A stretch of 64,000 nucleotides of DNA from Candidatus Bathyarchaeota archaeon. GTDB lineage: Archaea > Thermoproteota > Bathyarchaeia > Bathyarchaeales > Bathycorpusculaceae. How positions within the stretch are numbered: the stretch's first letter is position 1; each line of letters starts with the position of its first letter. Positions 6,710 to 63,234 of this stretch are shown here, one piece after another. The stretch spans positions 800,001 through 864,000 of the forward strand of contig OY970176.1 of assembly GCA_963707955.1 (NCBI GenBank), given 5' to 3'. The position numbers and the translations under genes are program-made. Under the pieces are notes generated by a model, which saw only the letters and a list, made by a program, of their open reading frames with translations, was not told the origin of the DNA and ran no database searches.

Positions 6710-6974
6710 ACTCAATGCTTATCAGTATTTGCACAAGCATCAATCCACCCTTTATCTTCTGAAGGAAATTATTTTCTTTTCTTTTTTCTTTAGCGCGCGC
6801 ACAGATTAAGCTAGGCTTTCCTTTTGCAACGCTGTGCAGAAAACCAAGATAAGGTTCAAACTTCGCCGCGCGCGCTTTCGTGGGGTGAAATGCCTCTAGG
6901 GAAAAATCTAAGGCCAATCAATACTAGTTATGATTCGCATGAACATCTCTGCACAGAGATTTTGGGTGGGAGAA

Positions 6975-7154
6975 ATGCGGAAAGTTCAGAAGTCTAGGGT
7001 GGCCCCGGCCCTGTTCATGTTTGCCGTGCTTCTGGGCGGCTCTGTGGTGATAGCGGTCGCTGAGGCAGGGATCGAGTTCGTGGTCGTAATAGTGATTATC
7101 GTGGGAATAGTGATACTTTTATCCGTTGGATCTCAGTTCAAGAAAAAAAATTAG
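6975..7154 (+). CDS. Small membrane protein (2 TM)
   Basis: Two hydrophobic stretches with basic ends; GGTGGGAG SD-like motif before ATG 6975. Confidence 0.55.
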   Translation: MRKVQKSRVAPALFMFAVLLGGSVVIAVAEAGIEFVVVIVIIVGIVILLSVGSQFKKKN

Positions 7155-7387
7155 CGAGCCCGCTCATTTCTGCGCGCGCGCCTTTGCTCTCGGGGTTTGT
7201 GGAGATAAGGTTTTGTTTGTTTTGTTTTTTCGTCGTTGTTAATGCGGCGTTGTTTTAGAATTATGCGTGGTTTTCTGCGTTTTATTTTTAGCGTTTTTGT
7301 AGCGTATTCTGTTTGTTCTTGTTTTTGGTTTTATAATTACTTACTTCGGTTGTTTCGGTTTGCTTAAGCGCGCGCAGAAAACTTTTT

Positions 7388-7624
7388 CTATCCTTCATGC
7401 GCGATCATCGTTATTGTTGATTTAACTCTCTCCAGTCTCCTTATCTTGTCATGTATTTCTTTGAGCCTGTCCATAGTATCCGCTCTTGTTCTTACAATGA
7501 TGTCATAGACGCCGTAGACAGGATAAGCTTCTTCAACTCCCTTAATCTCCCTCAATGCTTTCATCAACATCGGGTGATATTCTTCTGAATTTATCAACAA
7601 ATATGCCGTAGGCATCCAAATCAC
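7388..7624 (-). CDS. Lrp/AsnC ligand-binding domain protein
   Basis: VYGVYDIIVR and VKSTITMI motifs. Confidence 0.85.
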   Translation of the reverse strand: MIWMPTAYLLINSEEYHPMLMKALREIKGVEEAYPVYGVYDIIVRTRADTMDRLKEIHDKIRRLERVKSTITMIAHEG

Positions 7625-7673
7625 CTTTTACTCTCTCTGAACACTTCGCTTTTAGCTTTTGGGCGCGCGCTAG

Positions 7674-7823
7674 TGGGGTCGTGCGGATTTGAACCGCAGA
7701 CCTACGGGTTTCTTCAGGTGACAGCTCCAGAATTCTGTCATCACCGTTTACGCATCGGCTCCACTTCTTTACGCATTGTGGATTTCTGGAGCCCGTCGTC
7801 ATACCTGCCTAGACTACGACCCC
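7674..7823 (-). tRNA. tRNA-Trp(CCA) with 76-nt intron at 37/38 (intron 7710-7785)
   Basis: Acceptor stem GGGGTCG/CGACCCC, anticodon stem ACGGG/CCCGT with loop CTCCAG|A, T-loop GGTTCAAATCC; TTTAAAT box about 30 nt upstream. Confidence 0.93.
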
Positions 7824-7966
7824 ACGGCTACACTGAGAAGGACTTGCCAGATTTTAAATATATGCATTGTTGCGCCAGAAACAGAATCTGTGCACATGCC
7901 TAAGATTCGAGAAGACACATCAGCCTAGAGCGATAAGCTTATGAGCACAGGGTTGTCGTCTAGTTT

Positions 7967-8093
7967 GGGGTTTGCCGGTCATAGGGCGCGGGTCCCACCT
8001 GATCCCATACCGAACTCAGAAGTTAAACCGCGCTCCGTTTCTGGCTGTAATGTGGTCTTCGGCCATGTGAACCCGGAAAAGCTGGTAACCCCA
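7967..8093 (+). rRNA. rrf: 5S rRNA
   Basis: CACCTGATCCCATACCGAACTCAGAAGTTAAAC core; terminal helix GGGGTTTGCCGG/CTGGTAACCCC. Confidence 0.93.
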
Positions 8094-8154
8094 CTTCAAA
8101 ATAGTCGGTGAATTTGGAGGAAAATTACCCAAAACTTATAACTCAGCATCTATA

Positions 8155-10682: not shown

Positions 10683-11813
10683 TTACCTTTTTATGTGGAA
10701 TTTTCCTATTACGTCTCTTGCTTTTTCACGCTTCTTCTGATGCCCAGCAAGAAACTTGTTGACTCTTTCAGCGAGTTCTTTCTTGCACTCGCCGCACAAG
10801 ACTTCGCCAGCCTTGCAGCGTCTCTTCCTTTCTGCAAGTTTCTCGTCATCCTCCTCGAATAGATAGAGGAAATATTGAAAGACTGTGCAGACATCGGGGT
10901 CGGCGCCCTCTTTTCTTTGTTCAGCGACTGTTCCTTTCCCACCTGTAAATGCCTTCCAGATCTTCTGCGCGACCAGTTCAGGCGGGTCTGTAGTGAATAT
11001 GGCTGTCTCAGGCTCTGAAGCGTTCATCTTTCCACCAACGCCCAATCCTGGCAAGAAGCGGTTGTGGATTTGGGCTGGCTTGTAGTACCCAAGCTTCTGG
11101 GCGATGTCTCGTGTGATCCTCCAGTAAGGGTCCTGGTCAATCGCTGCGGGTATAAGAGCGGGAACGTTTTCACCAGTTAGTTTCTTATGTATGAAACAGG
11201 GCACTGCTTGGACAGCTGGCCAGAACACCCAGCCGAGGTTTGTGCTGTCCTGAAAACCAAAGGTCGCTCTTGCCGTGGAATATGTTATGCGCTTGGCAAC
11301 TTCCAACGCAATGTCGTAGAGAAGATCGATGTCATCAACATCGTAGATGATGAAAGTGTTCTTCGGTTCGAAGCCCAGCGCAACGAGGTCCAAAGCGTTC
11401 TCATAGCCCAACCTCGTGGTTTCAGACAGGATGCGATCGTCGTCTACCACGAACTTTTCATCGTCGGTCATCTGGAAGTAGAGCCTCGCGTTAAACGCGT
11501 CTTGCAGGTGCTTCGTGAAAATCCAAGGGACGAGATGTCCAATGTGAACAGGGCCCGAAGGGCCTCGGCCCGTGTAAAGCACGAACTTGACCCCTTTGTC
11601 GTACAAGTCAAGAACAACGTCCAGGTCCCTGTGAGAAAAGAACAGTTCCCTGCGCAGCTGAAGATGAACGCCGCCCGTGTACTTGGCAAGTCTTCGTCGA
11701 AGCCCTTCGGTTAAGGGCTCGGTTCCAAACTCTCGGATCAAACGTTCATAGTCGACCTTGCCCTTCACTTCCCAAGGAGTAACGACCATTTCGTTTTTTT
11801 CTTCATCAGTCAA
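10683..11813 (-). CDS. trpS: Tryptophanyl-tRNA synthetase (copy 1)
   Basis: YTGRGPS, HIGH, AIDQDPYW, KMNAS, C-terminal CGECK. Confidence 0.95.
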   Translation of the reverse strand: MTDEEKNEMVVTPWEVKGKVDYERLIREFGTEPLTEGLRRRLAKYTGGVHLQLRRELFFSHRDLDVVLDLYDKGVKFVLYTGRGPSGPVHIGHLVPWIFTKHLQDAFNARLYFQMTDDEKFVVDDDRILSETTRLGYENALDLVALGFEPKNTFIIYDVDDIDLLYDIALEVAKRITYSTARATFGFQDSTNLGWVFWPAVQAVPCFIHKKLTGENVPALIPAAIDQDPYWRITRDIAQKLGYYKPAQIHNRFLPGLGVGGKMNASEPETAIFTTDPPELVAQKIWKAFTGGKGTVAEQRKEGADPDVCTVFQYFLYLFEEDDEKLAERKRRCKAGEVLCGECKKELAERVNKFLAGHQKKREKARDVIGKFHIKR

Positions 11814-12051
11814 GCCTTATGCCGCCTGCGCAGTCAGCTTCCTTATACAATCTATGGAAACATATTAAATCTTGCGTGAACGAAAGCTCGTAGCAATGCG
11901 GCTGCGCCTTTAACAAGAGCAACCATGCTATGCATTCCAGAAAGCTTCAAAAAGTTTAAACATGTCCATTCACTCATTTATGTTGGGTAATGCGTTGGAC
12001 TGGCACTAGTCTCCATCAATGAGTCGCCTATTTTTCTAGTAGTTCCTCTGA

Positions 12052-13215
12052 ATGTTGTCAGTTTTGCGCCACAGAATTCTCTTGAAAGAAAAGGAGGAAA
12101 GATACCTGCAGTCAAATTCTGATAAGAAAGCAGTGGTTGATCCGTTTGGAACAAGTTCAGTCACAGATTATGAGCGGCTAAGCGAAGAATTTGGGATCGA
12201 ACCGTTTGCAACAGCCTTGCCAAGAGTGCCTGATCCATCATTTCACATGAGACGCGGAGTGATCTTCGGCCACAGAGACTTCGGCAGAATCCTGGATGCA
12301 ATGAATGCGAATGATAATTTTGCTGTTTTGAGCGGGATAAAACCGACAGGTGAATTTCACTTAGGCACGTTGATGACGGCGAAGGAGATTATCTACTTTC
12401 AGCAGCACGGTGCTCAGACATTTTACTGCATTGCTGACATAGAAGCCTATGAAGATAACAAAATCCCCTTTGAAAAAAGTGAAAAAATAGCTGTAGAAAA
12501 CGTTGCAGACATGCTTGCACTTGGACTAGATCCAGAAAGAGCATACATTTACCGGCAGTCTAGAGAAAACAGGGTCAAGGACTTAGCTGTGATCCTTGGC
12601 AGACCTTTAACTTTGGCCACGATGAAAGCGATATACGGTGAACGACACATCGGTCTATACCTTGCGGCTTTGATTCAAGCCGGAGACATTCTCCTTCCTC
12701 AGCTCGAAGATTTCGGAGGTCCTAAACCCACTGTGGTTCCTGTGGGTGTTGATCAGGATCCGCACCTTCGCTTCACCAGAGACTTGGCTCGGGTTTTTCA
12801 TCGGAAATACGGTTTCATCCCTCCCTCCTCAACATATCATAAGCTTATAAGAGGACTAGACGGCTCCCCGAAAATGAGCAAACGGCAAATGAATTACTTC
12901 ACTTTGCATGACAAGCCCGAAGTCATTGTGCGGAGAATATCTAATGCTTTTATCGGCGGAAGACCAACTGTCAAAGAACAACGTGAGCTCGGCGGGGTTC
13001 CAGAGGCGTGCCCGATCTATGAGATGTGTCTTTTCCATTTTACGAAGGACGATCGGAAAATCGCCGAAACCTATCATGACTGCAAGACTGGAAGACTGCT
13101 GTGCGGAGACCATAAGAAGCAGGCGATTGATGCAGTGCTGAAGTTTGTGAAGGAACACGCACGGAAAAGTAAGAGGTTTATTGACGAGGAATATGAAGTA
13201 CTTGGAATAGACTAG
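12052..13215 (+). CDS. trpS: Tryptophanyl-tRNA synthetase (copy 2, divergent paralog)
   Basis: SGIKPTG, HLGT, GVDQDPH, KMSK, CGDHK; real start may be CTG 12106 after AGGAGG. Confidence 0.9.
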   Translation: MLSVLRHRILLKEKEERYLQSNSDKKAVVDPFGTSSVTDYERLSEEFGIEPFATALPRVPDPSFHMRRGVIFGHRDFGRILDAMNANDNFAVLSGIKPTGEFHLGTLMTAKEIIYFQQHGAQTFYCIADIEAYEDNKIPFEKSEKIAVENVADMLALGLDPERAYIYRQSRENRVKDLAVILGRPLTLATMKAIYGERHIGLYLAALIQAGDILLPQLEDFGGPKPTVVPVGVDQDPHLRFTRDLARVFHRKYGFIPPSSTYHKLIRGLDGSPKMSKRQMNYFTLHDKPEVIVRRISNAFIGGRPTVKEQRELGGVPEACPIYEMCLFHFTKDDRKIAETYHDCKTGRLLCGDHKKQAIDAVLKFVKEHARKSKRFIDEEYEVLGID

Positions 13216-13535
13216 CGCGCACTATGATTAAAAGGGTTTGTTAATTCCTCGTGGGATTTGAGTCCTTGTTAACTGTCGTGGGATGAAGCGATACTGTTGG
13301 CTTTTTCATGACGACTAGCCTCGTTTACCATCAAATCTTTCAACATTGTTAGGTTGAAAAAGCAGGATTCAGAAACCGCTCTCACGCTATTGAGCTTGCC
13401 TTGATGAAACTTATGGAAAACGAAAAGAAGGAAATGGCCCCGCGTGCGCTTGCTTTCTTCTTCTGCCAAACGGTGCCCAATTCTGGTTTCTTAGCGCGAG
13501 TGCTAGAGCCTATGAACATTGCGCAACGCGCGAAA

Positions 13536-14033
13536 TCAATATGATTCTAGTAGTCCGAAGGTTTTTAAACGGTCTCTCAGATTTCTGATTCTGTCACTAG
13601 CTTCGGTAATATCTCCAAGTAGTCTTTCAAAGTTGCGGACGTTTAGGTTTATGAGCTCATGGAGGGCTACGGGGTTGTCTGGTAAATCGTACAAGCTTGG
13701 GCTGGTTCCAGCCTCTCTAGAAGCTTCAACAATCCACTCTTCGAGCCTTGGGCACAATATGAGTAAGTGATTGTTTAGCCATCTATATTGCAACAGTCTT
13801 ATCTTATGTGCCTCATCGATCTCAGTTGCTTGAAATTTCTTCAAGTCTGGCAATTGAAGGCTTCTGGGGTCTTCATCAACCATTCCCACCGAATTTTCGT
13901 AATTAGTATGTCTCACACCTCTAATCAGCTTCCTAACCACACCTGACTTGTTCCCAGCATGTTCAATCCTTTCTGTGGGAACACCCAAGATGCTGAGCAG
14001 TGTTAAGTCCGCTTTGCATTCCACGAAGAGCAT
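13536..14033 (-). CDS. TOPRIM-like (DUF4435/DUF3226-like) protein
   Basis: N-terminal FVECKAD, GNK, DEDP and LEEW acidic motifs; 5 nt downstream of the AAA ATPase gene. Confidence 0.65.
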   Translation of the reverse strand: MLFVECKADLTLLSILGVPTERIEHAGNKSGVVRKLIRGVRHTNYENSVGMVDEDPRSLQLPDLKKFQATEIDEAHKIRLLQYRWLNNHLLILCPRLEEWIVEASREAGTSPSLYDLPDNPVALHELINLNVRNFERLLGDITEASDRIRNLRDRLKTFGLLESY

Positions 14034-14038
14034 CTACT

Positions 14039-15049
14039 TCAGTCCTTTGCGCCCAACAATTTTTGGAGGTTAAAGAAAACATCCGATCCCATCCTGAGGA
14101 TGTCTTGTTTTTGGCTGTCATCTAATTCTCTTGCCTTTGTCTGATAGTGATCGAGATAGGTTACAAATGCAGACAGATCATCCTTTTCTGTTTTTTCCAG
14201 CAAAGATACCAGAAAATAGGGGTTGTGCGTTGCGATGAAATACTGATTCTTGTTTGGATCTACTGCTATTCTTTCGGCAAGATACTTCGTATAGTATGGA
14301 AAGGCATGTGCCTCTGGCTCCTCAAATGAAATCACACAATTCTTGTTTGAGTAGATTGCAGCGAGGTAGAATGCTATTCTTTGCAGAGTTTCCGAAGACA
14401 GAGAATAGGGAAACGAGATTATTACGTCCTCAAACTCCTTTTGAATTTCTATTTTCCCTTCTGGAGGTTTGAAAACCATTCTGTAACCAAATGCTCCGAA
14501 CATCTCTCCGAAGATTTTTTTTAGATCTTTCCGCGTTAGAATCACATGTAGTAGGTTATCGCCATCTGGTGGCATAAGGAACTCTGCTTGGGGATCCTGA
14601 AAACTAACTTTTTTGTTGAATCGATAAAACCTAAAAGGTGTCACTTGTGTGCTAAGTTGAGGCATGAGTTGCGATTGGCCGCCCCCATAACCATACTGAA
14701 ATACTTGTGTTCGGAAAGCCAATGGTGAGTCAGCAGGGCCAAGCCTAAAAGTTCCAACGAACGTCCCGTTGCTGAATTCCATCTTCAAATAGTTGAGCCC
14801 AAATTCCACTTCAACAGGATTTTCTAAGACATGATCGTAGAACAAATCAATCATGGTTTCAAATCTGATAAATTGCCCAATGTTGCGGAGCCTGCCCTGA
14901 CACAGGTGAGACATTAGACCTATTGCTTCCAATATGTTGGATTTTCCGGTATTGGGTTCGCCGATAAAGACGTTTACACGTCTGCATTCGAGAGTCAGTT
15001 CTTTGACTGATTTGAAGTTGCTTATTCTCAGTTTTGTGGTAACTATCAT
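14039..15049 (-). CDS. ABC/AAA_15-AAA_21 family ATPase
   Basis: ISNFKS, GEPNTGKSNILEA, FEEPEAH, ATHNPY. Confidence 0.9.
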   Translation of the reverse strand: MIVTTKLRISNFKSVKELTLECRRVNVFIGEPNTGKSNILEAIGLMSHLCQGRLRNIGQFIRFETMIDLFYDHVLENPVEVEFGLNYLKMEFSNGTFVGTFRLGPADSPLAFRTQVFQYGYGGGQSQLMPQLSTQVTPFRFYRFNKKVSFQDPQAEFLMPPDGDNLLHVILTRKDLKKIFGEMFGAFGYRMVFKPPEGKIEIQKEFEDVIISFPYSLSSETLQRIAFYLAAIYSNKNCVISFEEPEAHAFPYYTKYLAERIAVDPNKNQYFIATHNPYFLVSLLEKTEKDDLSAFVTYLDHYQTKARELDDSQKQDILRMGSDVFFNLQKLLGAKD

Positions 15050-15321
15050 CTAGTTTTCAGCCTCTCTCGTTTAGAATAGTTGCTTCGGACCTAATATGAA
15101 GGTTTGTGTCGCTTGTAGATATGCTGTGTATTTCCGCGCACGCTCGCGCTAATACAAATCCACAGTGGTGCGTCGTAATTCTAGTCAAAGACACCAAAAG
15201 GTGAGTGCGCGCTTTAGCGTTTTCCAGTATCTTCATTCTCTTCGTCATTCTTATTACCGCTCCTCAGCTCCTAGAATCCCAGTGATGTTTAGGGCGCGCG
15301 CTTGAGTCTCAGAATGTCAAT

Positions 15322-16251: not shown

Positions 16252-16435
16252 GGTTTGACCAGCTCAGGCGCGCGCTAGAAATCTTCTCTTGCCATTTGTT
16301 GACCATAGGTCAGCAATGACTTAATAAAATCTACTGTGTTAGTAGCGCGCGCTTTAAGCTCCTAAGAGTTAACAAAACCTCCACCCGCTAAGTTTATGGG
16401 CTTGTCCGCGCGCTCGCTAGATATAGAGGAGTAAC

Positions 16436-20492: not shown

Positions 20493-20528
20493 ATTTTCAG
20501 TCTTCTACAAATAAAGCTTTGGCAGTCA

Positions 20529-50324: not shown

Positions 50325-50329
50325 CGCAG

Positions 50330-53270: not shown

Positions 53271-53338
53271 CTTTACACCTGTACACCGCCCTTTTGCAGA
53301 AATCGACATCAAAACGCGGTTCTGAGAGGTGAAGACTG

Positions 53339-54286: not shown

Positions 54287-54383
54287 ACACAAATGACACC
54301 TCTTTTTTTCTTTCACCAGTCAATCAGTAACTTATCGCGCACGCCAAGGAAAAAGAAGGGAATTGATAGAAGATGAGGTGATT

Positions 54384-54699
54384 CTATTTGGCTTTTTTAA
54401 GCATTGCTACAACTTCTTTGTTCTTCAGGACAATCTTGGTTTCCATTGTGTTGAATGAGAGCCATTCCATCAATTTTGGCTCCATTTGCAGTTTTTGCAT
54501 AGCATCAAAGTCGCCTTCTAAGACCATATAGACTAGGTGCTCTGGGAAGTCAGTCCATGAGACCGAGCATCTTTACTCCATGCTTCTTCGTCAAACTCTC
54601 CATCTTATCAAAGAGTTCCAGAGTACTCTTTCGGTGTTTCTCACTGAACGCAGGGCAATTCTCAGGGGCATGCTTGTTTATCCACATGAATACTGGCAT
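54384..54699 (-). pseudogene. Small ferredoxin-like fold (DUF3303/GYD-like) protein with 1-nt frameshift near 54560
   Basis: MPVFMWINKHAPENCP...KKHGVKMLG continues as SWTDFPEHLVYMVLEG...KKAK in another frame. Confidence 0.6.
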
Positions 54700-54808
54700 T
54701 TTGATACACTCAGATAATCTGCTCCGTTCTTTTGGAAATATAAGCCTTTGCAGAGTGACCACAATGCAAACATCAAAAACCTCTCTTTTATTCAAGCAAA
54801 ATTCGTCT

Positions 54809-54856
54809 TGGCTCGTGAGCCTTTCGGCTCACTCGCACGTTCCAGACGATTCGCCA
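54809..54856. repeat. 48-bp hairpin repeat, copy 2
   Basis: One substitution relative to copy 1. Confidence 0.9.
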
Positions 54857-55245
54857 CGAAGACTAATACCTTTCGTTTCTGCTTGGAACATTCCACGACA
54901 AGTTCGAGTATTAATATAAGTCGCTCTCTACGCACTATGCGTTCAGCGGCAGAAGGAGTGCTCTTTTATTTGAATGAGGAAGAGCTGAAGAAAATCTGGT
55001 GGAACATCCTTCAGAAGAAAGGATGTTCAATCCAAGAAGTTGAAATAGGATCTAGGAGATATTTGACGACAAATTACAGGCGAACAGAGCCTGTAGGCTC
55101 AAGTGAAGCGCGCGCGCTAAAGACCTGAACGAATTTATCCCAGACATATCAAGCTGAATTACTAGCTGAACGTTTTGCTATCGCCCATGGAAGTTGGTTG
55201 GGGCAAAGTCTTATGAAAAACCCCGAGGCTGACTAAAACTCAAGC

Positions 55246-56502
55246 TTAGCACTTAGGAATCTGTTCGTACAAACCCAACGTTTTTGCAGCGATCTTATCC
55301 CAAGTAAACTCGTTCAGAACCCTCTTTCTACCGTTCTTTCCAAGCCACTTTTTCTTGTCAGCATTTTCCAAAACGCTGTTTATTCCCCATGCTATGTCCG
55401 ACGGATTATTAGGATCTATGTGATAACCACATTGCTCATCTCCGCAACAGACAACGATTTCACGCATCCCACTTATACCCGCAGCTCCAACAACAACAGG
55501 TCGTTCCATCGCCATGGCTTCAAGAACAACTATTCCGAAGGGCTCATAGAAACTTGGGAAAACTGCAACGTCACATGCAGCATAATGAAGAATACGTTCT
55601 TCCTCGGGAATGAATTCGAACCTGAACTTCACGAAATCACTCATCTTCGTAGCTTTCACCAGATTCATCAAGTATTCCTGCAAGTCGCCAAGACCAACGA
55701 TAACAAGCTTCGCCTTAGGATTCTTCTGCAAAACATGCGGCAAAGCCATAATCAGTTTATCAACACCTTTCATACCGGCGAGTCGACCTATAAAAAGAAT
55801 CATTTCCTCATCGTCCTTCACGTCATACATAGCTCTGATCTTTTTGACTTGATCAGGAGTCACCGTGCTCGGATTGTACTTGTCAGGGTCGACACCGTTA
55901 TAGGAAACCTGGATTTTCTCCTTCGGAAAACCAAGTCCAACCAACTCATCCTTCATAGCATAAGAAACTGTCACGATAAGGTCGGCCACTCGAGCGGCGT
56001 GAAGTTCAATGTTGCTGAGAGTGACCGAACCGTTCCCAAGAGTTCTTCCCTTTTCGGTTGAATGAACATGAAAAGCGAATGGCATTCCAACCTCCCTTTT
56101 CACAGTCATCCCTCCTATGGCAGAAAGCCAGTCATGAGCGACCACTATGTCATACTTGATATCTTCTTTCCTGATCAGTTCATTAACCAGCTTCGACGCA
56201 CTCAAATAATTATAGACAAAAATTTTAGAGAAAAATTGTATTCCTTTCCCCATTCCCCACTTCCTTATGTCTTCTGCAACAACGTCAGGCAGAGAATCGG
56301 AAATGTCAATGGGCAACGGACGGTGAATCTCGATACCGCGCCAAATCTCCCGTGTCGGCAAGCTACCGGCGTCATCATTCATCGTAAACACAGTCACATC
56401 ATTGTCGTCCAAAACAAACTTCCGAGTAATCTCCGCAGCGTAGGTGCCTAATCCCCCAACAATCTTAGGAGGGTATTCCCAAACAAGAACCGCCAACTTC
56501 AT
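55246..56502 (-). CDS. Glycosyltransferase family 4 (glycogen synthase-like)
   Basis: WEYPP..VGGLG, AHDW, HSTE, FIGRL..KG, EPFGIVVLEAM. Confidence 0.92.
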   Translation of the reverse strand: MKLAVLVWEYPPKIVGGLGTYAAEITRKFVLDDNDVTVFTMNDDAGSLPTREIWRGIEIHRPLPIDISDSLPDVVAEDIRKWGMGKGIQFFSKIFVYNYLSASKLVNELIRKEDIKYDIVVAHDWLSAIGGMTVKREVGMPFAFHVHSTEKGRTLGNGSVTLSNIELHAARVADLIVTVSYAMKDELVGLGFPKEKIQVSYNGVDPDKYNPSTVTPDQVKKIRAMYDVKDDEEMILFIGRLAGMKGVDKLIMALPHVLQKNPKAKLVIVGLGDLQEYLMNLVKATKMSDFVKFRFEFIPEEERILHYAACDVAVFPSFYEPFGIVVLEAMAMERPVVVGAAGISGMREIVVCCGDEQCGYHIDPNNPSDIAWGINSVLENADKKKWLGKNGRKRVLNEFTWDKIAAKTLGLYEQIPKC

Positions 56503-56739
56503 TTTTTCACCATCGCGAGTCGATCGATGGCTTCTAACTGATACAAAACTTTACCTTATTTACTTTCCTCACTCAACATACACCTGTTCTGACGATCATA
56601 AAGCAGATTTCATTTCCTAGCGCGCGCGCAATTGCTATAGCGTACGTATAAGAAAAGTTAAGAATAAGTTAAGAATCACTCCGCGCGCAGAATATCCTAC
56701 CAACAGCTTGACCGCGATAGTAGCGCGCTCGCTCGCTCG

Positions 56740-56764
56740 CTCGCACGTTCCAGACGATACGCCA
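56740..56764. repeat. 48-bp repeat, truncated copy 3
   Basis: CTCGCACGTTCCAGACGATACGCCA preceded by TAGCGCG and a (CTCG)n stutter. Confidence 0.8.
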
Positions 56765-56856
56765 AAACAGACATTCTCAATTAATTCGCGTTTTTCAAAT
56801 TATACAAAAAGTCTTTTATTCGAGACTACTCGTAACCTTCAAACTGAGGACCGATA

Positions 56857-57330
56857 ATGAAAACTCTGGTACTTTATTACACCCGAACTGGAAACACGAA
56901 ATTCGTCGCCGAAACTATTGCGGCAGAACTTGGAGCTGACATGGAAGAAGTCATAGACTTGAAGAAACGCCAAGGCACACTCGGCTGGCTATCAGCTGGC
57001 AGAGACGCCATGGGTGCAAAAGAAACCGAAATTGCCCAAACAAAAAGAATTCCAACTGACTACGACCTCATAATCATCGGACAACCCGTCTGGGCTCGAA
57101 ATCCGACGCCAGCAATCAGAACATACCTGAACAAGAATGACTTGTCGGGGAAGAAAGTGGCGTTGTTCCTCTCCGATATCAATCTGGGTCAAACCGTCGA
57201 GAAGACCAAAGCGTTAATGTCGAACTCCACCTTAGTCGGCGAGTTAGTCTTATCAGCGAAAGAATTAGAGAACAAGGAAGAGACAAAAAAGAAAATCGCT
57301 GAATGGTGCAACACACTCCAAATAGTGTAA
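56857..57330 (+). CDS. Flavodoxin
   Basis: YYTRTGNT, YDLIIIGQPVW, LSGKKVALF. Confidence 0.9.
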   Translation: MKTLVLYYTRTGNTKFVAETIAAELGADMEEVIDLKKRQGTLGWLSAGRDAMGAKETEIAQTKRIPTDYDLIIIGQPVWARNPTPAIRTYLNKNDLSGKKVALFLSDINLGQTVEKTKALMSNSTLVGELVLSAKELENKEETKKKIAEWCNTLQIV

Positions 57331-57408
57331 TATGCTCAGTGCGCGCGCGCTCAAAAAACCGACACAGATCGCTCGATAAAACTCTAGCTCCACACACTGA
57401 AACTACTG

Positions 57409-57912
57409 TCAGATTATCTCTTTTGCCATGGTTATTCGTTCTGGTTTGTATCCAGTTCTGCTGTAAAGCTTTATTGCAGAGTCATTTGTCGCTGATACCG
57501 AAAGAGCAATTCTGGAATGCCCCTTCCTTCTACAATAATCTTCCGCCTTTTCCAAAAGCAACTTCCCGATTCCCTTGCCTCTGAATTCCTCTTCAACAAA
57601 AATGTCATAAATATAACCGAAGGTCAGCTTAGTAATCTGGCCTCTGATTTGTCCAACGATCAAGTGTCCAACGTACTTATGATGTTCATCCTCTGCGACA
57701 AAGACCTCGGTATTTTCTTCCTTCAAGATATTCTCATAATCTTCAATCACATTCATGTTCCATTTCTCTCTATCGAGAAGCTTTTTCTGCGTTTCAGGGA
57801 TGTATTCCCACGAGTTTTCAACAAACATTTTCTTCACTAAGGATATGTCAGTTGCTTTTGCTTTCCTTAATTGAATGTTCATCAACATCATCCTTTTCGC
57901 GCCAGATGTCAA
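57409..57912 (-). CDS. GNAT acetyltransferase (copy 1)
   Basis: FRGKGIGK.LL, N.SAIKLY..GY; near-identical to 59940..60431. Confidence 0.9.
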   Translation of the reverse strand: MTSGAKRMMLMNIQLRKAKATDISLVKKMFVENSWEYIPETQKKLLDREKWNMNVIEDYENILKEENTEVFVAEDEHHKYVGHLIVGQIRGQITKLTFGYIYDIFVEEEFRGKGIGKLLLEKAEDYCRRKGHSRIALSVSATNDSAIKLYSRTGYKPERITMAKEII

Positions 57913-57953
57913 GTTCGATTCAAGTCTCCTTTAATATTTTGTGTAGCGCGCGT

Positions 57954-58043
57954 GACAGCGAAAGAAGCAACCAAACTTGTAGAAGCAGGATTCCAACACG
58001 TCACAACAATCGAAGGAATACAACTATTCAAAAACGCAAGTAA
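57954..58043 (+). pseudogene. Integrase 3' fragment
   Basis: TAKEATKLVEAGFQHVTTIEGIQLFK matches the C-terminal tail of both integrases. Confidence 0.85.
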
Positions 58044-58115
58044 CCAACAACCTCCCTCCTTTTTTAATGTGGAAAACATATTTACTCATGAGAGTAGCGT
58101 GCGCGGGTAATACTC

Positions 58116-58565
58116 ATGAATGAGGATGATTTGTCATTCCAAATATGCAAGCTGCCTGAAGATTCCAAGTCTGTAGAAGAAGGCTTTCGAACAATTCGAG
58201 ACGGTCTCAGGAGAAATATTACTGACAAAACCAGCAACGTCGAACCACCAAGAACAATCGCGATATTGATCCGAGACAAAAGGAACTGCATCGTGGGAGG
58301 AGTAATAGGTTATGCCATGGGAGGATGGCTACTTGTCGATCTTCTATGGGTCGAGGAATCACTCAGGAACAAGGGCTACGGCACCAAACTTCTCAAAATG
58401 GTTGAAAACGAAGCAGCAAAGCTCGGATGCAAATACGCTCACCTAGAAACTTTCAGCTTTGAAGCACGACCATTCTACGAGAAGCACGGCTACACACTTT
58501 TTGCAACGCTTGGCAATTACCCAGAAGGGCACAGTAAACATTTCCTAAAGAAAAAACTGGCATGA
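58116..58565 (+). CDS. GNAT acetyltransferase
   Basis: LWV...RNKGYG, TFSFEARPFYEKHGY. Confidence 0.9.
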   Translation: MNEDDLSFQICKLPEDSKSVEEGFRTIRDGLRRNITDKTSNVEPPRTIAILIRDKRNCIVGGVIGYAMGGWLLVDLLWVEESLRNKGYGTKLLKMVENEAAKLGCKYAHLETFSFEARPFYEKHGYTLFATLGNYPEGHSKHFLKKKLA

Positions 58566-58596
58566 GAGTGCACTTGTTCTATATACTGTCGATCGA

Positions 58597-58644
58597 TAGC
58601 TCGTGAGCCTTCCGGCTCACTCGAACGTTCCAGACGATACGCCA
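58597..58644. repeat. 48-bp hairpin repeat, copy 4
   Basis: Loop TTCC instead of TTTC; stem intact. Confidence 0.88.
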
Positions 58645-58765
58645 AAGCCAAAACACAAAGCGCGCGCTTGAAGCACCAAGATCCAAAACCTGTAAGCGGA
58701 GCCTCTTCTAGAATTCGAAAATTATTAAAGCACTATTACGCATATCATACCTTCTGGGAACATAA

Positions 58766-58858
58766 ATGCCGAAAAAAGAAAAACCGTTAACTAAGAAAGA
58801 GCGAGACGAGAAAAGGAAGAAACATAAGGAAAAGCAAAGCAAAACACAGACTTCTTAA
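58766..58858 (+). CDS. 30-aa basic micro-protein
   Basis: MPKKEKPLTKKERDEKRKKHKEKQSKTQTS; TATA-like TTATTAAA upstream. Confidence 0.45.
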   Translation: MPKKEKPLTKKERDEKRKKHKEKQSKTQTS

Positions 58859-59230
58859 GCCCCAAGAAAGAACTTTGCAAAACTCTTTTTCTCTTTTTAC
58901 CATAAAGTTGGCTTCTTTAATGAAATGAAAGAAAGACGCGTCAGCTTTGGATATTATTGGCTTCCTCCATTAATGCGAAAGAAATATGTTTTAGCTTGTT
59001 TATTTATCGTTAATTTGTAGCTGAGATTTATGCCGAGTGTAATGAAACGTAAACAAAAGAATACTCAAATCGCACAACAGAAAAAGATAGAACGGGATAA
59101 AGAAGCGAAAAAGAAACAGTTGAGACAGCAACTTCCTGCCAAGGGCAAGAAACGTTAAAGCCACTAAAGGAGCTATGGTAACCATCTAGAGCGCGCGCCT
59201 AGAAGACAACAATACAGCGCGCGCTGCTTA

Positions 59231-59752
59231 TCATCCGAACAGGTCCAAGAAGGGGGTAAGCAAATGTTTCGTAACGAAGTTTTCATTCACCAACTCGCCA
59301 TCTTCAGCATTTAGACCGTTACAGGAAGGAATTAGCTTAAGCGTGAAGGAGTTCGGACTGACTCTCTCAAAGTCGAACGGGTACAATCTGCAGCGAGCTG
59401 GCCTAGAATTGTAAATCGGACACTCGTAAGACCCTCTCCTTGGACTGGATTTTAGGAGAATACACCATCCATCTTTGTTGTTTTTCAAGTTTCCAACCAT
59501 CATAGGCAAGCGCTTGAACTTCGGATCCACTGTTGTCTCCAAAAAGTCTTCCAATCTGTGTCCCGTTTTTTTTGCCCGCTCCATATCGCTCTTGATGAGT
59601 ATTGGTCCCCCAAGTTTGCAGCAGAAGACTGCACATCGTTTACACCTGAAACGAAGATCATCATGATAAAAAGTCATCCTCAAAATTCGTTTAGCTTTGG
59701 GATCCAAGATGACTTCTGCAATGTTTTCGTTCAAGTTCTTGCCCTTGCCCAA
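59231..59752 (-). CDS. YkgJ family Cys-cluster protein
   Basis: CKRCAVFCC, C..L, CPIY..RP..CRLYPF. Confidence 0.88.
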   Translation of the reverse strand: MGKGKNLNENIAEVILDPKAKRILRMTFYHDDLRFRCKRCAVFCCKLGGPILIKSDMERAKKTGHRLEDFLETTVDPKFKRLPMMVGNLKNNKDGWCILLKSSPRRGSYECPIYNSRPARCRLYPFDFERVSPNSFTLKLIPSCNGLNAEDGELVNENFVTKHLLTPFLDLFG

Positions 59753-59835
59753 ACAGCTCGCTTTTTGGAGTGTTTAAAGCTTATGTTCTAGCGGGCGCAA
59801 ATAACGACAATCCTTTTTTCCCACAAAAACCATCT

Positions 59836-59880
59836 TGGCTCGTGAGCCTTTCGGCTCACTCGCACGTTCCAGACGATACG
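59836..59880. repeat. 48-bp hairpin repeat, copy 5
   Basis: Identical to copy 1 over 45 nt. Confidence 0.9.
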
Positions 59881-59939
59881 TTCAAAGAACCGACACAGAT
59901 CGCTCGATAAAACTCTAGCTCCACACACTGAAACTACTG

Positions 59940-60431
59940 TCAGATTATCTCTTTTGCCATGGTTATTCGTTCTGGTTTGTATCCAGTTCTGCTGTAAAGC
60001 TTTATTGCGGAGTCATTTGTCGCTGATACCGAAAGAGCAATTCTGGAATGCCCCTTCCTTCTACAATAATCTTCCGCCTTTTCCAAAAGCAACTTTCCGA
60101 CTCCCTTGCCTCTGAATTCCTCTTCAACAAATATATCGAAAACATAACCGAAGTTCAGCCCAGTAATCTGGCCTCTGGTTTGTCCAACGATCAAGTGTCC
60201 AACATACTTATGGTGTTCATCCTCTGCGATAAAGACCTCACTATTTTCTTCCTTCAAGATATTCTCATAATCCTCAATCACATGCATATTCCATTTCTCT
60301 CTATCGAGAAGCTTCTTCTGCGTTTCAGGGATATATTCCCACCCTGTTTCAACAGCCATTTTCTTCACTAATGGCATGTCAGTTGCTTTTGCTTTCCTTA
60401 AGTGAATGTTCATCATCATCATCATCATCAC
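59940..60431 (-). CDS. GNAT acetyltransferase (copy 2)
   Basis: Duplicate of 57409..57912; begins GTG(ATG)6. Confidence 0.9.
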   Translation of the reverse strand: MMMMMMMNIHLRKAKATDMPLVKKMAVETGWEYIPETQKKLLDREKWNMHVIEDYENILKEENSEVFIAEDEHHKYVGHLIVGQTRGQITGLNFGYVFDIFVEEEFRGKGVGKLLLEKAEDYCRRKGHSRIALSVSATNDSAIKLYSRTGYKPERITMAKEII

Positions 60432-60548
60432 CTTTTCGCGCCAGATGTCAAGTTTGATTCAAGTCTCCTTTAATATTTTGTGTAGCGCGCGAAACATCAA
60501 ACGCTGAAAACTAAAATAATAAAAAAATGGAAACTAACCGCGCGCGCG

Positions 60549-60591
60549 AACAACAATCGAAGGAATACAACTATTCAGAAAACGCAAATAG
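60549..60591 (+). pseudogene. Integrase 3' fragment
   Basis: TTIEGIQLFRKRK-stop followed by the same CCCC-TTTT terminator-like tract seen after the intact integrases. Confidence 0.8.
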
Positions 60592-60645
60592 CCACAACCC
60601 CCATTTTTTTATTTCGAAATAGAAGGAAAGAAACTGCCTGAGAAA

Positions 60646-61005
60646 TTGAGACTGTTGAAATTTGACGAAAAAGAATACTACAGCAGACTATCTGAAAAGC
60701 AACTAGAGGAAGCGATAGAAAAAGACTTGAACACCGTTTTGACCCAGAACCTGTTTGAGCTAAAAACATTCATCAATTACGATCTAAAACTAGGCAAGCA
60801 TGAAAATGATGCTGTATTCTGGAATTTTGTTGGAAACCCCCTTTATAGAATGCTTGAAAAAAGCATTGTAGAGAACTGCCGCAATAGTGAAAGATACAGA
60901 AAGAAGCTCATTTATAGAATGGATAACCTCATAAATGAACTTAGACCAGACTGGGCGCTTTTCATGGAAAGAGAAGAAAGAAGAAAGAAGCAACCCAAGA
61001 AATAG
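60646..61005 (+). CDS. Hypothetical protein
   Basis: 119-aa ORF directly after the integrase remnant. Confidence 0.55.
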   Translation: MRLLKFDEKEYYSRLSEKQLEEAIEKDLNTVLTQNLFELKTFINYDLKLGKHENDAVFWNFVGNPLYRMLEKSIVENCRNSERYRKKLIYRMDNLINELRPDWALFMEREERRKKQPKK

Positions 61006-61081
61006 TCTTTCAAGAAATCGTATTCTTCCTCAAGATAGCATCAAAAATTTTACCGTACAGTTTTGTCAGTAACGCGCGCGC

Positions 61082-61133
61082 GAATGGCAAAGACTTCGAT
61101 GAACTGGCAAGAAGACACAAATTCATGAAGTAA
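61082..61133 (+). pseudogene. 3' fragment of the wHTH regulator
   Basis: NGKDFDELARRHKFMK-stop versus NGKDFDALARKHKFMK-stop at the end of 51650..52264. Confidence 0.85.
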
Positions 61134-61149
61134 GCCCGTAGCGGGCGCG

Positions 61150-62019
61150 CTAGATCGCAACCGTTGCCGAGTAAATTTCAGATGCTATTTCGATTGCTTT
61201 TTCCCACTCTCTCTTTCTGAGGTTCTCCACCGCTTCTGTTACCAGTGCACATGTCTTCTTGCGTATATCGTCATTGCTTGTTCTTCTTTCCACAACATTG
61301 CGGGCAATGCATACAGATTCAATTGCTACTTTCGCCAAGACAAACTTGTCGATGTCATATCTTTCAGATACCACCGCGCTCAGATTGAAATCTGATAGAT
61401 GCCTTTTGATTCGAGGAATTCCAGATGCCAAAACGTAAGCAAAGACAACAACAAGAATATAGTAAGCTGCAACTACCAAGGAATTCTGCAAAAGAGTAAG
61501 TGTGGGAATTGCTGATACATTCGGAAATCCCTGAGCAGAATAGAGCCAAATTCCGTAAACAATAGGCACGAAGACTCCGACTACGCATGAGAAAATTCCG
61601 ACACCGCGCGCATTTATCAGATTTATCAATCGCCAACTATAGTCAATTAACCCTTGATCCCCACTTTCATTCACAAAGAGGTTTATTATGTGCACACTAG
61701 ATGTGTTCTTCTTCACATCCTCTGCCATTTGCTGATTCATCTTCTTCGTGTGCGAATCTACAAACTCAGCCACTAGTTCTACGCACTGGTCGCGTACTCC
61801 CAGCCTCCCTTTCTGTGCCCAAATCTTGCCGTATATTGTTCTAACGTACCCTTGATAGATAACAAAGCCAACAGGTATCACAGACGCAATTATGAAGGTT
61901 ATCGCCCGAGTGTCGAACGTACTGGTTTTTCCGACCATTATTAAAAACAACAGAATAAAAAAGAAGGCAAAAAAACCTGGAATGGAATAATACAGCAAAG
62001 TCTCGTTCTCAGTCTTCAC
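61150..62019 (-). CDS. Hypothetical multi-TM protein
   Basis: Four hydrophobic segments, YSIPG motif; stop TAG runs into CGCGC. Confidence 0.7.
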   Translation of the reverse strand: MKTENETLLYYSIPGFFAFFFILLFLIMVGKTSTFDTRAITFIIASVIPVGFVIYQGYVRTIYGKIWAQKGRLGVRDQCVELVAEFVDSHTKKMNQQMAEDVKKNTSSVHIINLFVNESGDQGLIDYSWRLINLINARGVGIFSCVVGVFVPIVYGIWLYSAQGFPNVSAIPTLTLLQNSLVVAAYYILVVVFAYVLASGIPRIKRHLSDFNLSAVVSERYDIDKFVLAKVAIESVCIARNVVERRTSNDDIRKKTCALVTEAVENLRKREWEKAIEIASEIYSATVAI

Positions 62020-62122
62020 ATCCCTTCACTACCAAGGTGCTATTCTTGTTGCCTGATTACTTAAAACAGTGCCGAAAAAGAGTGGCTACATCAATCAGCC
62101 AAGATAGAGTCAGGCGCTCCTC

Positions 62123-62258
62123 TCCTCGGAGACATAAGCCTTCCCCTCATTTGAAAAAGAGGAAAAGTTAGAAAGCATCTCATACGGAAGCCAATCTTAA
62201 AACTATGCGGAAGCTTCCTATTAGCATCTTGTTATGAAGGCATATTGTCTCCTCGTCC
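62123..62258. repeat. Conserved 136-nt structured non-coding element, copy B
   Basis: Near-identical to 52791-52926 and likewise upstream of an att. Confidence 0.85.
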
Positions 62259-62469
62259 ACAAAAACGACGGAATCATGAAGGTCAATGAAAGAATATCGG
62301 AGATATGAAGATGAGAACCCTTAAAAGAACCCCAGAAAAAATAGGAGACGGGAAGCTAGGGCAGAAATCGAGCTCCCAAAATTTTTAGGAGACGAAAAAT
62401 GATGAGCCAAGAAAAGACGGAACCACAAACACAGAAGACAACAATTTCAAAGATTACTAAGGCTATAGA

Positions 62470-62493
62470 CGGGTTACGACCAACACGCCAGCC
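62470..62493 (+). repeat. att site 3
   Basis: CGGGTTACGACCAACACGCCAGCC. Confidence 0.92.
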
Positions 62494-62589
62494 TTTTCTC
62501 AGAACCCGCCTCCTGATATCAACACACAGAACGGAAAACTCATAGAATACATGCTATATCTACAAAGAGCAGGATTCAGCGAAGCTTAG
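62470..62589 (+). pseudogene. Probable truncated start of a third integrase
   Basis: The att frame reads RVTTNTPAFSQNPPPDINTQNGKLIEYMLYLQRAGFSEA-stop, resembling an integrase N-terminal helix. Confidence 0.5.
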
Positions 62590-62596
62590 AGTCAGA

Positions 62597-63163
62597 TTGA
62601 TGAGTATTGAAGGCCACTGTTCAGACAGATATTTCAATCAGATATTTGGTTTAATTCCTGAATTGATTAGACCTGAGTACAGGAAGACTTTCAAGGCTTA
62701 TGATGGAATAAACAATGTTTTCAATTTGGCTTATGAAATGCTGTCATGGAAAGTGCATCATGCGTTGATAAAGGCTAAGCTTGAACCGTATCTGGGTTTT
62801 CTGCACAGTATGGCAGAAGGAAAACCGAGTTTAATCTGCGATTTTCAAGAACTGTATCGCTATCTTATGGATGATTTCGTTATTCAGTACTGTCGGAGAC
62901 TTCAGAAGAAAGATTTCATAATGAAGTATGAGGATTTTTCAACGAACCGAAAGGGAAAGAGAGAATACCTCAACGATTCTCTAACACACAGTCTGATTAG
63001 AAGTTTGAACGAATACTTCCAGAGCAAAGTTGAGATTCCACGAATTAGAATGGGAAAGGAACAGGAAATTGAGACGTTAATCAATGAAGAGACTCTACTA
63101 TTTGCAATGTACTTGAGGAATGAGAAACAGACATGGATTCCCAGAATTGCAAATCTAAACTAA
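62597..63163 (+). pseudogene. cas1: Cas1 catalytic domain, N-terminally truncated (solo, no CRISPR array in window)
   Basis: MSIEG...YF, D..N..FNLAY, LEPYLGFLH, SLICDFQELYR retain the E/H/D-E catalytic pattern; in-frame stop at 62543 upstream. Confidence 0.85.
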
Positions 63164-63234
63164 ACTCCTTGAGCGCGCGCTATTCTACCGAAAGTAATAA
63201 ATCCTATAATAGAAAAATACAGCGAGTGATAAAA

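Follow-up and report, generated by a model that had tools for sequence, protein, structure and literature searches.

The 64-kb stretch G000:C1:800001-864000 (here denoted the window) of the Candidatus Bathyarchaeota archaeon genome G000, a single contig of 2.35 Mb with 47.9% GC, contains many short runs of perfectly alternating GC with the consensus (T)A(GC)3-5T(A). The comparisons presented here give good support to the claim that the runs arose as new sequence at the joints of rearrangements. As to their nature, we give a probability of about one half to the interpretation that they are junction scars, a filler written when DNA is lost, replaced or inserted. The feature is real, strongly non-random and lineage-specific, and it fits no known kind of element.

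Abundance, form and position of the alternating-GC runs

We define a run as a maximal alternating-GC stretch and count runs of at least 6 or at least 8 nucleotides (nt). The window holds 50 runs of at least 6 nt, and the densest region of the genome for runs includes it. GCGCGC occurs 89 times in the window, compared with 11.67 +/- 3.71 times (largest value 21) in 100 dinucleotide-preserving shuffles of the same sequence, and GCGCGCGC is the top 8-mer genome-wide, with 464 overlapping copies versus 25 expected. A preliminary description of the window, made from its letters alone, had proposed this enrichment as a check of the motif, and both counts bear it out; the 18 positions that it listed all lie on an alternating-GC run or on the TA directly before one.

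Across G000 there are 510 runs of 6 nt, 186 of 7 nt, 267 of 8 nt, 130 of 9 nt, 56 of 10 nt and 2 of 11 nt, and none is longer. The distribution is not geometric and has its mode at (GC)4. Exact 8-nt runs read GCGCGCGC in 231 cases and CGCGCGCG in 36. Sequences of the form A(GC)mT were observed 503, 73, 114, 22 and 0 times for m = 2, 3, 4, 5 and 6, respectively, where 523, 30, 1.7, 0.1 and 0.01 are expected. Flanking the 231 exact 8-mers, A occupies position -1 in 71% and +2 in 38%, and T occupies +1 in 70% and -2 in 42%; outside about +/-3 nt the flanks carry no information. Orthologous runs vary by a single GC unit, and at one orthologous site GCGCGCGCG in one genome corresponds to GCGCGAGCG and GCGCTCGCG in others, demonstrating that runs decay afterwards through point mutation and one-GC-unit changes. 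The variable length had been taken to favour slippage or untemplated synthesis. The one-unit differences between orthologs agree with that proposal, whereas the sharp (GC)4 peak and the stop at 11 nt are not predicted by open-ended slippage.

Most G000 runs of at least 8 nt are intergenic (394/455, 87%), and 314 of the 1521 intergenic gaps of at least 50 bp contain at least one run. In the window all 34 runs of this length are non-coding, according to our crude gene calls. Genome-wide, 37 predicted stop codons touch a run, 26 of them TAG, compared with one start codon, consistent with reading frames that enter a scar and terminate at its TAG. The observation that the TAG of the motif often serves as the stop codon of the adjacent gene was correct for the genes with stops at 13213-13215 and 61150-61152 (also at 19933 and near 21066), but not for the gene with its end at 48169, which is 42 bp from the closest run.

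We compared the window with two close relatives, G001 (1.28 of 2.4 Mb compared) and G007 (0.87 Mb compared); pairwise identity is 93.3% for G000-G001, 91.6% for G000-G007 and 92.1% for G001-G007. Thirty-two of the 34 window runs of at least 8 nt sit in DNA that is not syntenic with G001 and G007, and the remaining two (30679 and 30708) share one spacer, itself different in both relatives. Run density is 2.35 per kb in non-coding variable DNA versus 0.49 per kb in non-coding syntenic DNA (Fisher p = 0.013, 10-bp bins). The density contrast and the placement of 32 of the 34 runs indicate that the motif is indeed nearly absent from the core blocks, as had been noted from the sequence.

Runs coincide with structural breakpoints

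Of the intergenic G000 runs, 139 have at least one flank that can be located in G001, and only 14 of these (10%) are colinear and of the same length there. In the same comparison, 341 of 629 random intergenic 8-mers (54%) and 212 of 407 isolated GCGC sites (52%) are colinear and unchanged. A structural difference is found at 90% of the alignable intergenic runs versus 46% of random intergenic sites. The reciprocal view starts from the 370 internal ends of G000-G001 orthologous alignments: at 122 of them (33%) a run lies within 12 bp in at least one genome, in G000 alone at 66, in G001 alone at 37 and in both at 19. A G000 run is present at 85 of the 370 breakpoints (23%) versus 3.6% of random intergenic positions. 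The coincidence of motif and synteny breakpoints, which the preliminary description had put forward for checking against relatives, is thus found from both sides.

The anatomy of the differences was seen at 58 clean insertions or deletions (indels) between G000 and G001. A run occupies the empty site in 21, and for 16 of them the retained segment (189-3690 bp) is run-less at both ends in the genome that still has it. The arrangement run-segment-run versus run, expected of target duplication or site-specific recombination, accounts for only 3 of the 21. This anatomy indicates that the usual event is the replacement of a stretch of DNA by 6-16 nt containing a run.

In relation to G007, the window shows 10 synteny gaps with 20 edges; one edge (58660-58667) falls on a window run, and at one further gap the empty site in G007 reads GCGCGC. 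The runs therefore mark accessory-gene boundaries in a narrower sense than had been described: with 1 of 20 gap edges on a run, the outer borders did not hold, while the joints within islands did, and it is mostly these internal joints of variable islands that the runs mark. Pieces of the islands occur elsewhere in the genomes of relatives at 86-99% identity and end at runs. A self-BLAST of G000 placed 4.4% of 1828 repeat endpoints at runs versus 1.55% (about 3-fold), and a repeat endpoint lies within 5 bp of 68 of the 455 runs, indicating that intragenomic repeats account for few runs.

Contigs (not raw reads) from four public sequencing runs of three studies carry the GC runs of the window, which speaks against an artefact of this assembly. 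One such contig covers five window runs with a single difference; the best-matching data may be the source sample itself. In a contig of public run X6, window positions 58903-58964 are swapped for GCGCGCG. No RNA dataset was listed among the public runs.

The run is the derived state

To determine polarity we used further members of the genus (G002, G003, G004, G005, G006 and G009; 71-74% identity) as outgroups. At event 50, a 3.3-kb segment is found in the same context in all six of these genomes and is missing from G000, G007 and G010, with boundaries that differ by up to 104 bp; the joint carries a run in G000 and in G007. At event 54, the segment is kept by G007, G003 and G009, and G000 and G010 lost overlapping yet different stretches, with GC filler at each. 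A three-way comparison of G000, G001 and G007 gave 12 sites at which one genome alone has a run (G000 at 5, G001 at 4, G007 at 3) and the other two have a longer segment in common. Among 22 informative G000 run sites, 13 are specific to G000 and 5 are common to the three genomes. Gains with almost no loss of DNA also occur, with GGACG replaced by (GC)5 and CA replaced by GCGCGCGCTG. The run is accordingly the new state where relatives, including those at 71-74% identity, keep 0.1-4 kb of ancestral DNA with run-less ends.

The ancestral breakpoints are arbitrary. Those that we inspected have no sequence in common and contain neither GCGC nor AGCGCT, and cutting at such pre-existing sites was therefore rejected. 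No target duplication of ancestral sequence was seen at the joints. The filler is always perfectly alternating and at most 11 nt long, and the same places have been struck repeatedly, with boundaries that differ between genomes. Where two runs lie close together, the short piece between them is a relic of older DNA, for example a 60-bp remnant of a 560-bp ancestral stretch.

A possible route to the filler

In the junction-scar interpretation, a stretch of chromosome would be lost, replaced or inserted and the ends rejoined with a short, constant, self-complementary filler, whose core would be (GC)3-5, mostly (GC)4, typically with A before and T after it and often framed as TA...TA. Every broken 3' end might gain a few nucleotides of the form A+(GC)n and, because alternating GC is self-complementary, the two tails could anneal to each other. 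Gap filling and nick sealing would then produce a perfect palindrome in any register and of capped length. Perfect alternation, palindromy, A/T flanks and capped length are all consistent with such tailing, annealing and sealing. A variant in which the two ends are tailed independently and then ligated blunt was excluded, because phase-broken joins are not enriched (products such as AGCGCCGCT occur 10 times versus 7 expected). Copying of the filler from existing run loci is not supported either: the excess of shared flanks is weak (89 pairs versus 68.7 +/- 8.4 at k = 6) and only two 18-mers are duplicated.

A scar written by an end-joining or repair polymerase was among the origins suggested in the preliminary description. 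The pattern agrees with it, since runs arise de novo at joints whose ancestral sequence is run-less, although Ku and LigD fail on co-distribution, as described below. We propose, as a tentative extension to which we give clearly less than even odds, that some Bathyarchaeia may carry a horizontally mobile DNA-end-healing activity that writes the fixed, self-complementary linker (T)A(GC)4T(A) onto broken ends, so that any two of them can pair and be sealed. Such an activity would be a prokaryotic counterpart of telomere healing or of tailing by TdT, with a sequence dictated by the protein or by a small template and not by the DNA that is joined. It would also be the principal means by which these lineages lose genes, capture genes and shuffle islands.

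If the runs are scars, each would be a dated record of a break and a join, from which the history of gene loss and gain could be read in organisms that cannot be cultured. An end-joining chemistry that deposits a defined sequence would, as far as is known, be new to all domains of life and a potential tool. Because one third of the homology breakpoints bear a run, the runs may explain a large share of structural change at 92-93% identity, which bears on how archaeal accessory islands are assembled.

Candidate writers

We searched G000 for enzymes that could write the filler. Outside the window, at G000:C1:957178-960233, lies a complete bacterial-type end-joining operon, encoding a polymerase domain (PolDom), Ku, and a ligase fused to a 3'-phosphoesterase (Lig-PE). 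The PolDom frame, short at the C terminus, has 247 amino acids (aa) in G000, whereas relatives have about 290-300 aa; in G004 the frame is split. Among 31 relatives, Ku is found in 8 of the 11 genomes of the genus and in 1 of the 20 outside it, a near match to the motif; G016 has Ku and Pol, and contains one copy of the 10-mer A(GC)4T. Despite the good match among the 31 relatives, Ku/LigD as the writer was ruled out by a sample of 301 genomes of the class. A preprint on the distribution of non-homologous end joining (10.1101/2023.09.30.560322) makes no mention of Bathyarchaeia, Thermoproteota or Crenarchaeota.

The reverse transcriptase model PF00078 (Pfam) has no match in G000, and telomerase-like or reverse-transcriptase-templated healing was set aside on that basis. 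The Pfam models of the PolX thumb and of Prim-Pol have no match in G000 either, nor does the Y1 transposase model PF01797. The DNA methylase model PF00145 has no match, in a search limited to the C5 class. Eleven multi-copy protein families near runs, inspected by eye only, are transporter-, GNAT- and regulator-like, with no evident DNA enzyme. Of the recombinase and primase genes to which the preliminary description had pointed as a check, the tyrosine recombinase genes of G000 show no proximity to runs, and Prim-Pol is unmatched in G000.

Several points weigh against the junction-scar interpretation. The searches of G000 yielded no enzyme that writes the filler, and the interpretation offers no reason for its start with A or its alternating GC; no end-joining system is known to write a constant sequence. 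Class-wide, Ku is present in 7 of 26 motif-rich genomes versus 89 of 301 overall and is common in motif-less lineages. Polarity rests on three events with distant outgroups and on the 12 three-way sites, G007 being barely an outgroup, and the three of those sites at which G007 is the odd one out are ambiguous. A one-sided test did not discriminate, with homology within 2 bp of the site at 33 of 96 run sites versus 101 of 362 random sites. Of the 58 clean indels, 30 are run-less, among them insertion sequences flanked by 9-bp duplications and integrations at repeats of 11-17 bp, and most outer island borders in the window are off runs; the runs are thus not the sole route of rearrangement. The gene calls are our own crude set, by which 80% of G000 is coding.

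An IS5-family element inserts into runs

G000 carries, outside the window at G000:C1:389082-390157, an element with DUF772 and DDE_Tnp_1 domains (Pfam) and terminal inverted repeats, which places it in the IS5 family; its transposase gene is split into frames of 194 and 127 aa. About 25 miniature inverted-repeat transposable elements (MITEs) of 160-300 bp are also present (e.g., 123074-123276 and 626574-626776). GCGCGC lies directly outside the inverted repeats of the element and the MITEs, mostly with A or TA beyond it, and some repeat-bounded copies hold cargo genes (event 15; G000:1559002-1560753). The element and the MITEs appear to insert specifically into the centre of GCGCGCGC, duplicating 4 bp (GCGC). 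At event 15, G001 and G007 have a solo run and G000 alone has the element. At event 37, a run in G000 and a decayed run in G007 correspond to a MITE in G001 flanked GCGCGC...GCGCGC, which would represent a 4-bp GCGC duplication at the centre of the 8-mer. The IS5-family element uses existing runs as its insertion target and is not their source. If the runs are scars, their targeting would be a case of a mobile element exploiting a by-product of repair.

Alternative explanations

The GCGCGC outside the inverted repeats of this element and of some 25 MITEs, some with cargo, is also what would be seen if the runs were transposon remnants, the palindrome consisting of two (T)AGCGC... element tips left head to head after excision or internal deletion, and the class-wide patchiness of the motif is as expected of a mobile element. 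We regard such an origin as unlikely, and equally so its corollary that deletions made by the element in adjacent DNA account for the missing flanking sequence. At events 15 and 37 parsimony makes the solo run older and the element the newcomer. All five MITE sites that are colinear with G001 carry an element there too (some enlarged or decayed), in contrast to the hyper-polymorphic solo runs. The transposase gene is disrupted in G000 and G001, intact copies are present in G003 and G009, and none was found in the run-rich genomes G004, G008, G010, G002 and G005, that is, in 5 of the 10 other genomes of the genus; the IS5-family terminal repeat pattern occurs in only 6 of the 26 motif-rich genomes of the class. 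The repeat adjoins only about 45 of 1978 run sides in G000 (about 2%), with nothing else recurrent in G000 or in the distant genomes G089 and G105, and the joints lack target duplication of ancestral sequence. A footprint of an IS5-like element was accordingly rejected on polarity, on the distribution of transposase and terminal repeats, and on its rarity beside runs. Alternating GC is prone to form Z-DNA, and the runs could instead be fragile sites or recombination hotspots, old alternating GC that breaks or offers microhomology, so that the run is the cause and not the product of the rearrangement. Some events look like this: at event 50 an extra one-sided loss of 104 bp between G000 and G007 retains the run, a 1.5-kb loss at G001:C4:3100 begins at a run also present in G000, insertions have entered runs (events 15 and 37 and G001:C3:27536), and both genomes have the run at 19 of the 122 run-bearing breakpoints. 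At the other 103 one genome alone has it, the retained ancestral DNA is run-less at the segment ends in 16 of 21 empty-site cases and at 12 of 12 three-way sites, and runs are new where distant relatives retain the segment. Fragile sites explain the repeated use of existing runs and not their origin, and as an account of the runs as a whole this one is improbable, more so than transposon remnants.

The other explanation offered in the preliminary description, that gene cassettes are excised and inserted by a site-specific recombinase with GCGCGCGC as its crossover core, as in integrons, is largely refuted, and we consider it very improbable. One-gene-sized pieces do lie between the runs of the islands, two tyrosine recombinase genes are present in island 2 (see below), and several segments that are located elsewhere in relatives end at runs. 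In an integron, however, each cassette ends in an attC site, an imperfect inverted repeat about 60-140 bp long that contains conserved boxes, and the run flanks, being uninformative outside about +/-3 nt, show nothing resembling attC: no conserved arms surround the core and longer shared flanks are not in excess. The two recombinases of the window score 48.7 and 43.7 bits on the integron-integrase model TIGR02249, whose cut-off is 265, their best match being a generic XerA-like model, also below its cut-off. G000 has 6 tyrosine recombinase genes and 455 runs; a run is present within 300 bp of 2 of these genes, compared with an all-gene baseline of 22%. Segment ends differ among G000, G001 and G007, often with a run at a given end in one genome only, and endpoints of shared segments that vary between genomes do not behave as integron-like cassettes; the commonest pattern is run versus run-less segment, and run-segment-run versus run is seen in only 3 of 21. 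There is similarly little chance that selection, or a repair bias linked to a methylase, keeps the palindrome abundant, as has been proposed for HIP1 (GCGATCGC) in cyanobacteria. Like HIP1, it is a hyper-abundant 8-bp GC-rich palindrome limited to certain lineages, but 87% of the runs are non-coding, 10% of the alignable runs (14/139) are conserved in place, runs decay by point mutation in sister genomes, and they arise with structural changes and not by point substitution. The methylase was not found in G000 with the C5 model, the only one used.

Distribution of the motif across Bathyarchaeia

The genus is represented by 11 genomes within the 31 relatives. The 10-mer A(GC)4T is present in 7-114 copies in each of these 11 genomes, versus 0-4 copies of reversed controls, and in 0-1 copies in all 20 other relatives. 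In the class sample of 301 Bathyarchaeia genomes, 26 are motif-rich, spread across at least 6 families. Two distant genomes have 22 runs of at least 8 nt in 196 kb (G089) and 9 in 49 kb (G105), with the same 8-mer, phase and A/T flanks as in G000 in the genome pieces at hand, and no recurrent sequence adjoining the runs was found in either. The tract-writing activity would be lineage-specific and patchy across Bathyarchaeia, like a horizontally moving gene.

Comparison with known systems

No described archaeal element with this signature was known to the authors of the preliminary description, and our search of the literature on the motif in archaea and on intergenic palindromes of Bathyarchaeia likewise found none. 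One parallel in kind is end-joining filler, as in bacterial Ku-LigD end joining, which also consists of extra nucleotides foreign to both parents, placed at joints after loss of DNA between arbitrary breakpoints; the N-nucleotides added by TdT in V(D)J joining are a related type. G000 encodes the Pol, Ku and Lig-PE of such a system. Terminal-transferase, gap-filling and primase activities are reported for the LigD polymerase domain in the available part of PMC8656161. Unlike end-joining filler, which is random or templated by the flanks, that of G000 is one constant palindrome, and Ku is not co-distributed with it.

Footprints of transposons resemble the runs in being short palindromes of two identical tips head to head, a chemistry typical of the Tc1/mariner-type and the IS5/PIF-Harbinger families with their MITEs; in G000, by contrast, the element enters pre-existing runs, and it is rare, broken or not found in run-rich genomes. 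HIP1 (GCGATCGC) is likewise an 8-bp GC-rich palindrome, tens-of-fold over-represented and lineage-specific, and is conserved and linked to a methylase, according to the accessible portions of PMC4390886 and PMC5861425, whereas the runs of G000 are non-coding, not conserved in place and tied to structural joints. The GC clusters of yeast mitochondria are also short GC-rich palindromes, dispersed through intergenic DNA of higher AT content, that turn over rapidly between strains and have an obscure mode of spread; the part of PMC4478555 available to us gives them 30-40 nt, families and putative target duplications, unlike the 8-12-nt unit of G000, which has no internal sequence and replaces lost DNA. 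Repetitive extragenic palindromes (REP/REPIN) with their RAYT transposases similarly occur by the hundred as short intergenic palindromes. As far as PMC3733652 is available, REPs are imperfect palindromes of 20-40 bp with a GTAG or CGTC head; in G000 the Y1 (RAYT) transposase was not found with PF01797.

Runs and islands in the window

The features of the window are as follows, in window coordinates.

6793-6800: GCGCGCGC run; left bound of a 66-bp relic, where the matches of relatives end.
6801-6866: the 66-bp relic, a cas1-like fragment matching window 62781-62838 (84%) and G001:C1:237147-237205 (83%).
6867-6875: CGCGCGCGC run; right bound of the relic, where the matches of relatives end.
7172-7181: (GC)5 run in a variable spacer of 1261 bp (6544-7804; 239 bp in G007).
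7368-7375: GCGCGCGC run; left bound of relocated segment 7376-7671, which is 96% identical to G007:C9:3108-3403, at another genome location in G007.
7663-7670: GCGCGCGC run; right bound of segment 7376-7671.
11882-27097: variable island 1 (15.2 kb), a patchwork of segments with runs at their joints; its place is taken by 149 bp in G007 and by 2.7 kb in G001. Its genes include a TrpRS-like paralogue, an AriA/GajA-like ATPase, a PLD nuclease and QueT.
13215-13220: GCGCGC overlapping the TAG stop of the TrpRS/TyrRS paralogue 12082-13215.
15294-15301, 16268-16275, 16345-16352 and 22379-22386: GCGCGCGC runs in island 1.
18016-18022: GCGCGCG; left bound of repeat 18018-18355.
18354-18361: GCGCGCGC run; right bound of this repeat, whose 86% match G001:C29:1950-2288 stops at the run; other copies stop at 18310/18311.
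19487-19495: CGCGCGCGC run 11 bp left of repeat 19506-19858.
19850-19857: GCGCGCGC run at the right end of repeat 19506-19858 (92% to G001:C22:2010-2362).
19927-19933: CGCGCGC overlapping the TAG stop of the QueT gene 19933-20424 (-).
21055-21064: (GC)5 run 2 bp from the TAG stop of gene 21066-21686 (-).
23106-23113: GCGCGCGC run; left bound of 23108-23195 (88% to G001:C2:68293-68381); G001 has a run on this side only.
23197-23205: CGCGCGCGC run; joint of 23108-23195 and 23204-24072. The latter is 97% identical to G001:C22:124-993, and G001 is run-less at this end.
24063-24070: GCGCGCGC run; joint of 23204-24072 and 24076-26283. The latter is 97% identical to G001:C2:626-2834; G001 is run-less at this end and has its own run 4 nt past the other end.
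24942-24949: GCGCGCGC run at the right end of 24122-24938 (94% to G007:C9:1677-2497).
25521-25529: CGCGCGCGC run in island 1.
27025-27032: GCGCGCGC run 66 bp inside the right border of island 1.
30679-30687: CGCGCGCGC run in a hypervariable spacer after pheT; G007 is run-less, G001 has a 7-nt run, and the three spacers differ.
30708-30716: CGCGCGCGC run in the same pheT spacer; not in G001 or G007.
45107-45115: CGCGCGCGC run in the replaced stretch 44359-45169.
47173-64000: variable island 2, with two tyrosine recombinases, GT4, GNATs and a cas1 fragment; 47172-58668 corresponds to 2.3 kb in G007.
48120-48127: GCGCGCGC run 47 bp past the integrase gene 47225-48073.
50078-50085: GCGCGCGC run in island 2.
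52421-52429: GCGCGCGCG run in island 2.
55108-55117: (GC)5 run upstream of the GT4 gene segment.
56620-56629: (GC)5 run at a homology break; a 99% match to G001:C13 stops at 56633, and a contig of the independent public run X5 matches 54811-56627 and then diverges inside the GC run.
57341-57350: (GC)5 run with alternative contig joints at 57344 (X6) and 57346 (X5).
57946-57952 and 60485-60491: GCGCGCG with identical left flanks.
58660-58667: GCGCGCGC run at the exact left edge of G007:C4 homology; in G007 a separate run precedes the shared DNA by 17 bp.
59191-59198: GCGCGCGC run; displaced joint, G001 and G007 having a run 19 bp earlier in the shared DNA.
59217-59224: GCGCGCGC run 18 bp after the preceding one.
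60539-60548: CGCGCGCGCG run in island 2; loose contig ends in public run X6 at 60549/60550.
61073-61082: CGCGCGCGCG run; alternative joint, a contig of public run X1 linking 58646 to 61082.
61145-61150: GCGCGC overlapping the TAG stop of gene 61150-62019 (-).
62600-63160 (+): C-terminal half of cas1, a gene relic covering TIGR00287 profile positions 156-323 of 327.
63173-63180: GCGCGCGC run 10 bp past the truncated cas1 gene.

The two GCGCGCG runs in 57921-57952 and 60460-60491 have an identical 25-nt left flank and lie upstream of two GNAT genes (-), and this shared flank suggests a recent duplication that included the run. The cas1-like fragment at 6801-6866 lies 56 kb from the truncated cas1 gene.

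Other features of the window

The archaeal RNase P RNA gene is located at 46859-47165. Island 2 starts 7 bp later and opens with a tyrosine recombinase gene, and from this arrangement the island looks like an integrated element for which the 3' end of the RNase P RNA gene served as attachment site. Another recombinase gene, related to the first, is found at 53339-54283.

Island 1 holds a defence-like cluster at 13536-18007, comprising an AriA/GajA/OLD-type ATPase (14039-15046), a PLD-family nuclease that is DrmC/type IV restriction-like (15322-16248) and a protein of 524 aa with a weak PDC-S05/VPA1262-like domain (16436-18007). Three class-I aminoacyl-tRNA synthetase genes of the Trp/Tyr type are present at 10683-11810, 12082-13215 (in island 1) and 31080-32171. 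Neither ARAGORN nor Rfam called a tRNA at 7673-7694, where the sequence is similar to the 3' end of a tRNA, and ARAGORN called none elsewhere in the window. A lone 5S rRNA gene (7971-8090) lies at the edge of a syntenic block.

A repeat of 182 bp at 42546-42727 recurs dozens of times in G001 and G007, with 77-87% identity; neither of its ends bears a GC run, indicating a separate MITE-like family. An insertion of 104 bp in G000 (30897-31000), not at this site in G001 or G007, has a 97% copy at G001:C3:167685-167788, and its ends are run-less. Run-less insertions in the relatives at window positions 3979 (990-993 bp; G001 and G007), 41321 (1212 bp; G007) and 46662 (1330-1334 bp; G001 and G007) are probably insertion sequences of other families.

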